Positions 15,927 through 18,760 of a stretch of 64,000 nt of DNA are shown piece by piece. Source of the DNA: Sedimentisphaerales bacterium (GTDB taxonomy: Bacteria > Planctomycetota > Phycisphaerae > Sedimentisphaerales > UBA12454); the NCBI GenBank assembly GCA_049518795.1, contig JBEKRK010000001.1, positions 583,506-647,505 of the forward strand, given 5' to 3'. A program made the position numbers and the translations under genes. The notes below the pieces were generated by a model that was not told the DNA's origin, made no database searches, and was given only the letters and a program-made list of their open reading frames with translations. How positions within the stretch are numbered: position 1 is the first letter of the stretch; each line of letters begins with the position of its first letter.

Positions 15927-16889
15927 ATGAAAAAGACTCGGATTGATACTGTTGAACAGGCAACAAAGCTGAAACAAACAGCACAAATAATTTTTCTTCT
16001 GATAACACTCTCGATAGCGATTTTTTTGATATATCTTGGTATAACTGCAAACCAGCCCGGGAAAACTGGCTGGATTGGGCCAAAATCTTATACGAGGATT
16101 ATTTCCCTTGCTCCGAGCACGACAGAAATACTTTTTGCGCTCGGGCTTGGCGATAATGTAATCGGCGTTTCGCAATTTTGCAATTATCCCGAACAGGCAA
16201 AGGAACTGCCGCGAATGGGCGGACTAATGAATCCTAATTACGAGGCAATCGTTGCGGCAAAGCCGGATTTAGTCATTATCTTCGATGATATGCAGGAAGC
16301 CGAAAATAAATTCAAGGCTCTTGAAATAGAAACCCTCGTTGTAAAACACGATACTATAAACGACATCCTTGATGCGATTCATACAATTGGCGAACGAACA
16401 GGCAAAGCGGAACAAGCCCGGCTGATTGTTGACGATATTGTGAATAAAATTCATATAACTCAGGGGCAAAATCAATCTGCCAATCCGCCAAAAGTGCTTG
16501 TATGCATCGGGCACGACTATTCGCAGGACCCGTCGGCAAAACTGCAAAACATTTACATAGCCGGCAATGACGGCTTTTACAGCGAGATGATTAAGCTTGC
16601 AGGCGGACAAAATGCTTATACCGGCAGCATAGCTAATCCGGCAGTCAGCTTCGAATCCATCATAGCAATGAACCCGCAGATTATTATCGATATTCTGCCG
16701 CCGGCAAACGTTAATATCGATACCGAAATTATCAAAAAACAATGGCAGAATTTTAGCGATATCGACGCTGTAAAAAACAACAGAATTTACCTTTTCATGG
16801 AAGATTATATGTCAATACCCGGCCCGAGATTCATAAATATAATCGAAAAATTTGCCCAGGTAATCAATCAGCCGGCTCAAACGCAATGA
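15927..16889 (+). CDS. Cobalamin/Fe-siderophore ABC transporter substrate-binding protein (BtuF-like)
   Basis: RIISLAPSTTEILFALGLG, PNYEAIVAAKPDLV, AVKNNRIY and PGPR. Confidence 0.88.
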   Translation: MKKTRIDTVEQATKLKQTAQIIFLLITLSIAIFLIYLGITANQPGKTGWIGPKSYTRIISLAPSTTEILFALGLGDNVIGVSQFCNYPEQAKELPRMGGLMNPNYEAIVAAKPDLVIIFDDMQEAENKFKALEIETLVVKHDTINDILDAIHTIGERTGKAEQARLIVDDIVNKIHITQGQNQSANPPKVLVCIGHDYSQDPSAKLQNIYIAGNDGFYSEMIKLAGGQNAYTGSIANPAVSFESIIAMNPQIIIDILPPANVNIDTEIIKKQWQNFSDIDAVKNNRIYLFMEDYMSIPGPRFINIIEKFAQVINQPAQTQ

Positions 16890-16890
16890 G

Positions 16891-16989
16891 TCCCGTTAGA
16901 CCTTGTCAGATTTATATATGTGTTTTAATATACTGTAAAACAGAAATATTTTATACCGCTTTACGCCTATGAAACGAGGTCTAACGGGA
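16891..16989. mobile_element. 99-bp MITE-like insertion with 13-bp terminal inverted repeats and 4-bp direct repeats
   Basis: TCCCGTTAGACCT (16891-16903) and AGGTCTAACGGGA (16977-16989) are perfect reverse complements; TGAG flanks both sides (16887-90, 16990-93). Confidence 0.75.
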
Positions 16990-17777
16990 TGAGCGAAAAA
17001 GTAATTGAAGTTGAAAATTTAGGTTACGGCGTCCGGGCAAAACGGATTCTGGAGGGAATTAACTTTTCCGTATTTTCCGGCAGGCGTCTTTTTATTGTCG
17101 GGCCGAACGGCGCAGGCAAAACCACCCTGCTGCGATGTATGAGCAGAATCATTACCGATTATGCCGGCATAATCAGGGTCAAAAATAAAAACATTGAAAA
17201 TTATTCACATAAAAATCTCGCGAAAATTCTGGTTTATCTTCCGCAATCGCTGCCGACAGATATTCCTTTTACCGCACGGCAATTCGTTATGATGGCCAGG
17301 TTCCCGCATTTAAGCCCCTTTTCGATTATAAGCCCACAGGACGAGAAAATTGTAAATAATGCTCTGGATGTGACGCAAACCGCCGGCTTTGCCGACAGAG
17401 AGATGACGACCCTGAGCGGCGGAGAAAGACAGCAGGTCAGTATCGCCGCGGCTGTCGCACAGCAGGCCGAAATTCTGCTGCTCGACGAGCCTGTTACATA
17501 TCTCGATTACAAACACCAAAGAGACATCCATATACTCCTGGCAAAAATAAATAAAACAAATAATACGACTATCGTTTGCGTTACTCACGATTTGAACTCT
17601 GCCGTGTTAAACGCCGATTCGATTATCGCACTTAAAGAAGGTAAAATTGCTTTTGAGGGAATGCCCCGGAATATAATGAATGAAGATACGCTCGAAGAAA
17701 TCTATTCGAAAAAATTTAATTTTACAGACCATCCGTTAACAGGCCAGAAAATAATTATTCCGGACATAATACAATGA
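16989..17777 (+). CDS. Cobalamin/Fe-siderophore ABC transporter ATP-binding protein
   Basis: GPNGAGKT, LSGGERQ, LLLDEP and H-loop VTHDLN. Confidence 0.92.
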   Translation: MSEKVIEVENLGYGVRAKRILEGINFSVFSGRRLFIVGPNGAGKTTLLRCMSRIITDYAGIIRVKNKNIENYSHKNLAKILVYLPQSLPTDIPFTARQFVMMARFPHLSPFSIISPQDEKIVNNALDVTQTAGFADREMTTLSGGERQQVSIAAAVAQQAEILLLDEPVTYLDYKHQRDIHILLAKINKTNNTTIVCVTHDLNSAVLNADSIIALKEGKIAFEGMPRNIMNEDTLEEIYSKKFNFTDHPLTGQKIIIPDIIQ

Positions 17778-18760
17778 GAAAAAACGCCGCACTGATATTG
17801 ATAATTCTATTCGCACTACTTGTTTTAGCGGCTGCTCCATTTGCAGGTCCGACAAAAATACCGTTTTCAATATTAAAAAACATCTCTGCCGACAGCACGG
17901 AGGCGAGGATTTTTTACTCTTTACGGCTGCCGAGGGTTTTTACAGCCTTTCTGGCAGGAGCCGCCCTTGCCTGCTGCGGAGTAGCTTTGCAGGCGATGTT
18001 TAGAAATCCGCTTGCAGCGCCTTTTACTTTAGGCATCTCAGGCGGAGCAGCCTTTGGAGCTGCAATATACGTTTTATTCTCAGCTTTTTTACAGATTTAC
18101 TGCGGTTCAATATTGTTTTCATTCGCTGGGGCTTTGGCTGCAATACTTTTAGTCTATGGACTTACAAAAATTAAAAAAGGCTTCTCCGCAGAAACAATGC
18201 TGCTGGCCGGCATTGCTGTTAACTTCTTTTTCTCAAGCCTGATACTTCTGCTGCAATATATAAGTGATTTTACCCAGTCTTTTATGGTTATTCGCTGGCT
18301 GATGGGCAGTATTGATGTTACAGGATATTTTACACCTGTTCTTATGCTTATTTTTACAATAATCGGTGTTGCAGTTATTAGTTTTCATAGTTTAAATCTT
18401 AACCTGATGAGTATCAGCGATGAAATTGCGATTACGCGGGGCGTCAACGTCCAGCAGACAAGAAAAATTATCTTTCTGGCAACATCTGTTATGGTTGCGG
18501 CGGTGGTAGCATTTTGCGGGCCTATTGGTTTTGTCGGTTTGATGGCTCCTCATATATGCAGATTGCTTGTCGGCTATGACCATAAAATTTTAACGCCTGC
18601 ATCAGTCCTGTTCGGCGGGGCATTTCTTGCCCTTTGCGATACGGTTGCAAGGACACTGATTGCACCAGCCGAGATTCCGGTCGGCGTAATAACCGCCCTT
18701 TTAGGCGGGCCCTTCTTCATCTGGCTGCTGCTGAAAGACAGCGTTAAATCAGGCGTATAA
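17774..18760 (+). CDS. FecCD/BtuC-family ABC permease
   Basis: LRLPRV, QAMFRNPLA, GPIGFVGLMAPHI and EIPVGVITALLGGPFF. Confidence 0.93.
   Translation: MRKNAALILIILFALLVLAAAPFAGPTKIPFSILKNISADSTEARIFYSLRLPRVFTAFLAGAALACCGVALQAMFRNPLAAPFTLGISGGAAFGAAIYVLFSAFLQIYCGSILFSFAGALAAILLVYGLTKIKKGFSAETMLLAGIAVNFFFSSLILLLQYISDFTQSFMVIRWLMGSIDVTGYFTPVLMLIFTIIGVAVISFHSLNLNLMSISDEIAITRGVNVQQTRKIIFLATSVMVAAVVAFCGPIGFVGLMAPHICRLLVGYDHKILTPASVLFGGAFLALCDTVARTLIAPAEIPVGVITALLGGPFFIWLLLKDSVKSGV

Follow-up and report, generated by a model that had tools for sequence, protein, structure and literature searches.

The Ssn family comprises small GIY-YIG nucleases, one of which, SsnA, cuts single-stranded DNA beside a hairpin repeat; its repeat-gene-repeat layout was likened by the authors to an insertion sequence (IS), and mobility was only hypothesised (Chenal et al. 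2025, Nat Commun, PMC11893778). Here we describe a family of short elements with a related layout, starting from a 99-bp insert in the operon of an ABC importer, which lies in a stretch of 64,000 nucleotides from a Sedimentisphaerales bacterium (the window; GenBank assembly GCA_049518795.1, contig JBEKRK010000001.1, positions 583,506 to 647,505). The insert is very probably a gene-less deletion copy of an element of ~268 bp that inserts into start codons, rebuilds them and may be moved by the GIY-YIG nuclease that it encodes.

The likeness to the Ssn genes with their NTS/SRM repeats lies in a single-domain GIY-YIG protein of ~90-95 amino acids, the gene of which is flanked by a repeated palindrome that is also scattered in gene-less form (PMC11893778). 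However, the Ssn repeats are compact hairpins of ~28 nt, and target duplications, empty sites, insertion at start codons and the borrowing of starts and stops find no mention there (PMC11893778). In the present family, unlike Ssn, the arms are the ends of the element itself, are separated by 70-240 bp and encode the termini of the protein. The published SRM pattern HGTCWY..RNCYNB has 13 matches in the genome of the window, none of which overlaps the 35 elements described below.

In an earlier study, stand-alone Slx1-like proteins were taken to be repair enzymes that are inherited vertically (Dunin-Horkawicz et al. 2006, PMC1564403). The nuclease of the present family has the same minimal GIY-YIG core as these Slx1-like/UPF0213 proteins (BH0048, PDB 1ZG2; EF2693, PDB 1YWL; eukaryotic Slx1), although none of them has been reported as cargo of an inverted-repeat element. 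Slx1 cuts branched and stem-loop DNA, and by analogy such an activity would fit a nuclease that acts at the base of a hairpin or cruciform. Selfish genes built on a GIY-YIG nuclease are also found among the homing genes (T4 Seg proteins, I-TevI). Unlike the present family, the homing enzymes possess extra DNA-binding domains, are several times larger and enter homologous alleles only, and their genes have neither inverted ends nor target duplications.

Among mobile DNAs without a gene, the miniature inverted-repeat transposable elements (MITEs) derived from DDE insertion sequences, such as the Neisseria Correia elements and MITEAba12, are similarly short and multicopy, have inverted repeats and target duplications, and can give expression signals to neighbouring genes. 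The insert in the window has the properties by which a MITE is recognized: a length of 99 bp, ends complementary at 13/13 positions, a 28-codon relic as its only open reading frame (ORF), a target duplication, empty orthologous sites, many further copies and a coding relative. In contrast to the DDE-derived MITEs, however, its parent encodes no DDE transposase, its interior is a remnant of the nuclease ORF, and the family occupies start codons in a single orientation and restores them. With IS200/IS605 and REP/RAYT the family shares a very small size, perhaps a dependence on hairpins of single-stranded DNA, a target that is both short and specific, and scattered gene-less palindromes, whereas those systems use HUH/Y1 transposases with covalent intermediates, make no target duplication and have sub-terminal hairpins instead of terminal inverted repeats. 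No account of start-codon-targeting GIY-YIG elements was found in the literature covered, a search that leaves most subscription journals outside and in which absence is not proof; as far as found, the family is undescribed.

The insert in the window and its coding relative

The insert separates the gene for the substrate-binding protein of the importer from that for its ATPase (Table 1). Its inverted ends are complementary at all 13 positions, both being exact matches, and are flanked by TGAG direct repeats, the junction reading ...CAATGAG/TCCCGTTAGACCT...AGGTCTAACGGGA/TGAGCG... (slashes mark the boundaries of the element). Removal of the element and one TGAG gives ...ACGCAATGAGCGAAAAA or, in longer form, ...ACGCAATGAGCG..., in which the stop codon of the binding-protein gene overlaps the start codon of the ATPase gene as ATGA; the reconstructed empty junction of the window is ...CGCAATGAGCGAAAA. 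The same type of overlap is intact at the next junction, between the ATPase and permease genes. The last A of the element and the TG of the right duplication rebuild the ATG of the ATPase gene at 16989, and the N-terminus encoded from there, MSEKVIEV, aligns from residue 1 with those of orthologues (MNQTVIEI, MSQTVIEI, MNEKAIEI). The Shine-Dalgarno (SD)-like GAGGT that lies 9 nt upstream of this ATG is GGAGGT in most copies of the family. The original ATG of the ATPase gene (16886-16888) now opens the relic ORF. The perfect repeats, their TGAG flanks, the two ATGA overlaps, the rebuilt ATG and the GAGGT had been read from the letters in the original prediction, and the reconstructed junction and the list of ORFs agree with it.

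In most relatives (loci L026-L034) the binding-protein ORF passes the ATGA and ends ~20 nt inside the ATPase gene, at the TGA in AATTGAAAT. The reconstructed 4-nt ATGA overlap is therefore specific to this lineage.

The search for further copies covered the genome of the window itself (G000, a Planctomycetota metagenome-assembled genome, MAG, of 2.9 Mb in 8 contigs with 43.5% G+C). A 107-bp stretch of the window has 13 matches there, and by pairing TCCCGTTAGA-like ends, 35 non-redundant copies of 59-145 bp and one of 268 bp were obtained. The reversed pattern, which served as a control, gave 0 matches in every genome searched; the 35 copies with the same ends are therefore not due to chance. 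Perfect 4-bp direct repeats flank 31 of the 35, and those of the remaining four are off by one base. Positions 1-10 of the ends are nearly invariant across the copies, and positions 11-13 vary by subfamily (GACC, GAAAT, GAGACA) with the arms still complementary in 27-34 of the 35. The nearest relatives of the window copy are copies with 81% identity at other sites in other species.

The 268-bp copy, which contains a single ORF, is the only coding relative of the short copies in this genome. The ORF has 91 codons counted from the ATG of the host gene (ATGAA/TCCC...) and encodes MNPVRPIWFYTYVLMCEKKKTFYTGCTGNL...RLKRGLTG, that is, MNPVRP...GLTG followed by the stop. This stop is the TGA of the right duplication and overlaps the rebuilt ATG of the host as ATGA; for its start, the ORF of the full element borrows the ATG of the host gene along with the upstream signals. 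The protein, 91 amino acids long, amounts to a bare domain. It passes the cut-off of Pfam GIY-YIG (PF01541; E 2.7e-13), also matches BH0048, a UPF0213 protein (PDB 1ZG2; E 1.5e-6), and has no match in NCBIfam. Its AlphaFold model has a mean predicted local distance difference test score (pLDDT) of 85.5, and the best fold matches are BH0048 (1ZG2) and Slx1; confidence is lowest for the residues that the ends of the element encode, with block means of 69 (residues 1-10) and 57 (residue 91), compared with 79-92 in the rest of the model. Y12, Y23, R33, H37 and E57 are invariant in 26 homologues, and of these, Y12, Y23, R33 and E57 are the catalytic-type residues of the GIY-YIG superfamily.

The short copies align with the first ~75 and the last ~25 bases of the nuclease gene, and a profile built from them matches the 268-bp copy twice, once with its positions 1-76 (E 2e-10) and once at the 3' end. 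The window copy retains about the first 25 codons and the 3' end of the gene, and its relic peptide is identical to the N-terminus of the nuclease at 12 of 25 positions (48%; pairwise E 5e-6). These alignments identify the short copies as probable in-frame deletion derivatives of the nuclease gene. A transposase with the same ends, for which the original prediction had proposed to look, did not emerge: when all TCCCGTTAGA-like ends at 450-6000 bp from each other were paired, only chance pairs with one mismatch and without duplications were obtained, and the coding partner is instead the 268-bp element, which encodes nothing but the 91-residue nuclease. A candidate of IS size (1.3 kb) was rejected because it contains part of a repeat surface protein.

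Table 1. Features of the window and of related copies. Plain positions are those of the window; contig positions (C1 to C3) are those of its own genome, G000.
Feature	Position	Strand	Remarks
Gene for substrate-binding protein, BtuF/IsdE/siderophore-type ABC importer	15927..16889	+	Stop TGA at 16887-16889; ORF list, NCBIfam BtuF/IsdE/TroA-like matches
Relic ORF, remnant of GIY-YIG N-terminus	16886..16972	+	28 codons MSPVRPCQIYICVLIYCKTEIFYTALRL, then TGA at 16970-16972
Left target-site duplication TGAG	16887..16890	+	
Non-autonomous 99-bp element, probable internal-deletion derivative of the GIY-YIG element	16891..16989	+	Subfamily with ends TCCCGTTAGACCT
Left terminal inverted repeat TCCCGTTAGACCT	16891..16903	+	Exact match
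Promoter-like match TTGTCA-17-TAATAT	16903..16931	+	Unsupported as promoter; overlaps relic GIY-motif codons
SD-like GAGGT within the element	16976..16980	+	9 nt before rebuilt ATG
Right terminal inverted repeat AGGTCTAACGGGA	16977..16989	+	Last A is the A of rebuilt ATG
Right target-site duplication TGAG	16990..16993	+	Its TG completes rebuilt ATG
Gene for ABC importer ATPase (FecE/heme/corrinoid type)	16989..17777	+	ORF list, NCBIfam, orthologues
Gene for permease (BtuC/FecCD type)	17774..18760	+	Intact ATGA overlap with ATPase gene at 17774-17777
Coding copy of 268 bp	C1:105311-105578	-	Same ends, TGAA duplication
Read-through copy, 101 bp	C1:334593-334693		
Read-through copy, 125 bp	C1:908388-908512		
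Read-through copy, 65 bp	C2:602856-602920		
Read-through copy, 95 bp	C3:267452-267546		

Insertion at start codons and distribution of the family

The reconstructed target 5-mer is ATGAA in 21 of the 35 copies and ATGAG (the window copy), ATGCG and ATGGA in one each, which makes 24 copies at ATGNN. A start codon was defined as an ATG from which the frame stays open for 118 codons or more, with no more than 45 open codons upstream. By this definition 16 of the 21 ATGAA copies lie at start codons, against 9% of the 9055 ATGAA sites in the genome (p = 3e-13). With a null of non-disruptive sites only, derived from an approximate map of the genes (89% coding, with 876 ATGAA sites between genes and 497-782 ATGAA starts), 16 of 17 copies were at starts against an expected proportion of 0.36-0.47 (p = 1e-6 to 6e-5). 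Landing on a start codon is the rule of this family and not the luck of the window copy.

The orientation is constant, the GGAGGTCTAACGGGA end being directed toward the downstream gene in every start-codon copy. This gene-facing end always reads (G)GAGGTCTAACGGGA and therefore places an SD-like motif 9 nt before the rebuilt ATG. The last base of the element (A; G or T in variants) and the duplicated TG restore the start codon of the host gene, and the downstream proteins have N-termini typical of their families, for example MNFTSLFINRPI and MKVYRTIQIALRALRRNP in two proteins that we take to be AcrB-like and MacB-like, respectively. In six copies of 97 or 100 bp the relic frame extends to the duplicated TGA (34-35 codons). 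In the copies of 65, 95, 101 and 125 bp, the frame of the borrowed ATG continues in frame into the host protein and adds 23-43 codons; two of these four read-through copies have a terminal T, and only TTG is rebuilt. The copies at C1:908388 and C2:602856 seem to be situated inside longer open frames and not at the frame start.

Orthologues of the ATPase are present in 40 of 41 related genomes. At all of the ~19 orthologous junctions that are readable, ...ATGAAC... or, in G018 and G020, ...ATGAGC... directly follows the binding-protein gene with no insert, and the junction is empty in all five other species of the genus. By this comparison, the window copy evidently entered the ATGA overlap between the gene for the binding protein and that for the ATPase in the line of descent of this species. 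The copy at the AcrB-like gene (C4:140700) is also absent in 3 species with a 90-93% identical protein, where the alignment spans the reconstructed empty site. The non-autonomous mobile insert of the original prediction is thus borne out, both by the 35 copies that a genome-wide search recovers and by the empty sites in relatives; the contrary outcome that it had named, a spacer filled in relatives as well and no other copies, is not what was found.

Similar properties are seen among the relatives' copies of the same subfamily. Perfect 4-bp duplications flank 19 of these 20 copies, the target is ATGAA in 15 and GTGAA in 2, and in both of the latter a GTG start has been converted to ATG by the insertion. 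A frame of at least 77 codons is opened by 17 of the 20, 12 of these frames being open to the edge of the examined DNA. Element scans were made by pattern, in which a gap of 62-90 nt catches the ~100-bp subfamily and one of 40-70 nt a 63-bp subfamily. The copy number of the ~100-bp subfamily is patchy, with 16 in the genome of the window, 0-10 in congeneric species and 0 in most other genera. Full-length copies precede different genes in different species, and in G005 two copies at different genes have interiors that are 96% identical. Tandem and nested copies occur, as expected, because insertion regenerates ATGAA on both sides. At C1:309443-309651 of G000 two elements of different subfamilies lie 15 bp apart before one gene, a pair consistent with a new insertion into the ATGAA regenerated by a resident element.

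The copies of 63-65 bp (for example C2:602857-602919 and C3:225172-225234 of G000) have the common outer ends CCCGTTAGAGACA...TGTCTCTAACGGG and contain, further inside, two hairpins rich in G+C. This subfamily has 28-29 copies each in G001 and G002, while only ~6 copies of this size class are present in G000, where no coding partner with exactly these ends was seen.

At least 500 close homologues of the 91-residue protein exist in public data, and most of them have exactly 90-92 amino acids, begin with MNPVRP and end with GLTG. According to record titles, the near relatives among them are from Planctomycetota (Phycisphaerae, Sedimentisphaerales); the sequence of one locus is the same as that of a G001 contig, and a second locus agrees in this way with a G013 contig. 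A recurrent layout became apparent, consisting of ATGAA or ATGAG, then T or C with CCCGTTAGA, the gene, TCTAACGGG with A or G, TGA and finally a long ORF. It was found with a perfect 4-bp duplication at 14 loci and with flanks off by one base at 2, and the records are labelled Planctomycetota, Omnitrophota, Nitrospirota/Thermodesulfovibrionales, Actinomycetota, Saccharibacteria, Gammaproteobacteria and, in one case, unclassified MAG. In two Gammaproteobacteria loci ATGA takes the place of ATGAA/ATGAG, and at some loci the rebuilt start is GTG.

Possible effects on expression and conservation of the remnants

Two consequences for expression had been predicted at the outset, an added internal promoter and an uncoupling of translation. 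The string TTGTCA-17-TAATAT is indeed present, but it scores 9/12, and a count of 8 matches of this kind in 4 kb compares with 9.2 +/- 3.4 in shuffled sequences; the internal promoter is therefore not supported, being no more frequent than in shuffles and having a -10 hexamer, TAATAT, that coincides with codons of the relic. This hexamer is what is left of GTT TTA ATR (V-L-M/I) in the GIY motif of the nuclease.

The uncoupling is doubtful as well, given that the old ATG opens the relic ORF and that a predicted stem would occlude the new SD and AUG. The predicted RNA fold of the window copy has a 17-pair terminal stem (minimum free energy -42.7 kcal/mol, z = -4.85), in which GAGG and the A of AUG are paired. 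The old ATG is situated at the foot of this stem, and the relic ORF ends at 16972, 16 nt before the new ATG. In the scheme that we propose, the ends of the element would pair in the mRNA and hide the new SD and AUG. Ribosomes coming from the binding-protein gene would re-start at the old ATG, read the relic ORF and melt the stem; they would then terminate at or shortly before the new ATG and re-initiate at 16989, and the host gene would keep its link to the old signals. The relic ORF may thus relay translational coupling instead of abolishing it. When 27 copies were folded together by RNAalifold, the terminal stem was the only structure recovered, with a double change in 1 of 13 pairs and no shared interior helix.

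Three short copies are orthologous between the genome of the window and its congeners, and they precede a surE-like gene, the gene for a membrane protein (MRKFKEF...) and the MKNRKITIL gene. The copies at the surE-like and MKNRKITIL genes have gap-free interiors that are 90-93% identical, against 55-65% identity at four-fold degenerate sites of the adjoining genes. The MRKFKEF... pair contains an indel, and its alignment over the whole element is 92-93% identical. The orthologous copies evolve as slowly as non-synonymous sites, which points to some constraint on these remnants, and their strong conservation suggests takeover by the host. Selection on the relic peptide was rejected, as the differences between the surE-side orthologues are all non-synonymous.

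Proposed mechanism of movement and rival explanations

Across phyla, no gene but that of the nuclease accompanies the ends, and this protein is therefore most likely the enzyme that cuts the element, its target or both. It would be supplied in trans by the one intact copy in this genome, or formerly by others, and would recognise the conserved outer 10 bp together with a stem that the ends can form. Its cuts would set the element in motion, and host repair or ligation would complete the integration. When folded as DNA, the ends form a stem of 13-17 bp whose base lies exactly at the element boundary (-19 kcal/mol, z = -4.25); this predicted stem and the Slx1-like fold suggest that a hairpin or cruciform is recognised. 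Duplications that are specific to the target (TGAG, TGCG, TGGA, TACA) point to a staggered cut of 4 nt that is then filled in, and speak against a copy taken from a donor via microhomology of the flanks.

Several points weigh against this account. Non-ATG sites, mostly T/A-rich ones such as ATTTA, hold 11 of the 35 copies, and in the reconstructed sites of all 35 no flank motif beyond A/TGAA was detected. Selection, and not targeting, could account for the excess at start codons. The interiors of the copies in the genome of the window are at best 79% identical to each other (median 62%); at such low identity the copies appear to be old, and the family may no longer be active here. Movement itself is read from the comparison of sequences. 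We know of no GIY-YIG enzyme that performs strand transfer; these enzymes hydrolyse DNA, and host ligation or repair must therefore take part. The completion of a 4-bp staggered integration is the weakest link of the proposed mechanism. The relay, for its part, is a proposal from folding and reading frames, and the relic ORF of the window stops short of the new ATG without overlapping it.

A broader proposal, which we put forward tentatively as possible though short of probable, is that the 91-residue Slx1-like nuclease mobilises, on its own account, a new mechanistic class of transposable element in prokaryotes. Such an element would be recognised by its ends as a hairpin or cruciform, would integrate at start codons, and would appropriate the translation start signals of the host while giving back a start codon and a ribosome-binding site, some of the gene-less remnants, perhaps with the window copy among them, being kept by the host as translation-relay leaders. 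The retention of remnants as such leaders would explain the slow evolution of the orthologous copies.

The mobile GIY-YIG enzymes I-TevI and the Seg proteins act by homing, and a homing-like spread would be the nearest alternative, in which the nuclease cuts ATGAA and repair copies the element from another locus via the ATGAA/TGAA homologies. The regeneration of ATGAA on both sides and the tandem or nested copies are compatible with it. However, copying of a donor flank would leave TGAA on the right, whereas the non-consensus copies have the target's own 4 bp on both sides (TGAG, TGCG, TGGA, TACA, TTTA), and the copies are situated at unrelated genes, each with a duplication of its own; we therefore regard this route as unlikely. 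It is also quite unlikely that the short copies are ordinary MITEs of a DDE-type IS (e.g., IS5- or IS701-like) moved by a classical transposase encoded elsewhere, with the GIY-YIG ORF as a passenger. Terminal inverted repeats with a 4-bp duplication are the classical signature of DDE elements, and DNA integration by GIY-YIG enzymes is not known to us. Nevertheless, no IS-sized unit or transposase with these ends was found in the genome, and the homology of the short copies extends beyond the ends into both the 5' and the 3' portion of the nuclease ORF. In several phyla the ends encode the N- and C-termini of the nuclease, and gene and ends therefore travel as one unit. That the insert is a non-mobile regulatory hairpin native to the operon junctions of this lineage, a spacer similar to a REP or an attenuator, as the strong RNA stem over the SD and AUG and the conserved orthologous copies might imply, is hardly credible in view of the exact 4-bp duplications at 31 of 35 copies beside unrelated genes, the empty orthologous sites, the patchy species distribution and the homology to the nuclease gene.

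If the nuclease does move the element, GIY-YIG would join the short list of enzyme classes used in transposition (DDE, DEDD, HUH, serine, tyrosine and Cas1), and an element of ~270 bp would be the smallest autonomous mobile element known, setting a new lower limit of size. The family would represent near-harmless selfish DNA that lands exactly at a start codon, borrows the start signals of its host and returns a working SD and ATG, so that it can sit inside operons, as in this ABC-importer operon. It would also account for many small genes annotated as GIY-YIG nuclease family protein and for odd spacers of ~100 bp at operon junctions in uncultured phyla; in annotation, the start codons beside such spacers would have to be regarded as rebuilt ones. 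A tiny nuclease that reads a defined DNA structure together with a sequence could serve as a tool, as has been proposed for the Ssn enzymes.

Three other small GIY-YIG loci are present in the genome of the window. An ORF at L017:1501-1716 (C1:375817-376032, minus strand; MYNVYILLNRVKTRTYTGVAANV...) stands alone between two apparent tRNA genes and is without CCCGTTAGA ends. At L018:1391-1913 (C2:721950-722472, at the contig end), a different small gene (MITVYVLQGKNKRYVGITNNL...) begins ~30 nt after tRNA-Glu; behind it the 3' end of the tRNA is repeated, and another, identical copy of the gene begins. The locus looks like a tandem unit of a tRNA 3' fragment and a nuclease gene that is cut short by the end of the contig. 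The ORF at L015:1501-1698 (C1:227557-227754) lies within a different 12-bp inverted repeat (CCCGCACCTTCT and AGAAGGTGCGGG), with the 3' end GGGATGAACC before the next gene and no clear duplication at the left flank, and looks like a second, related family of elements.

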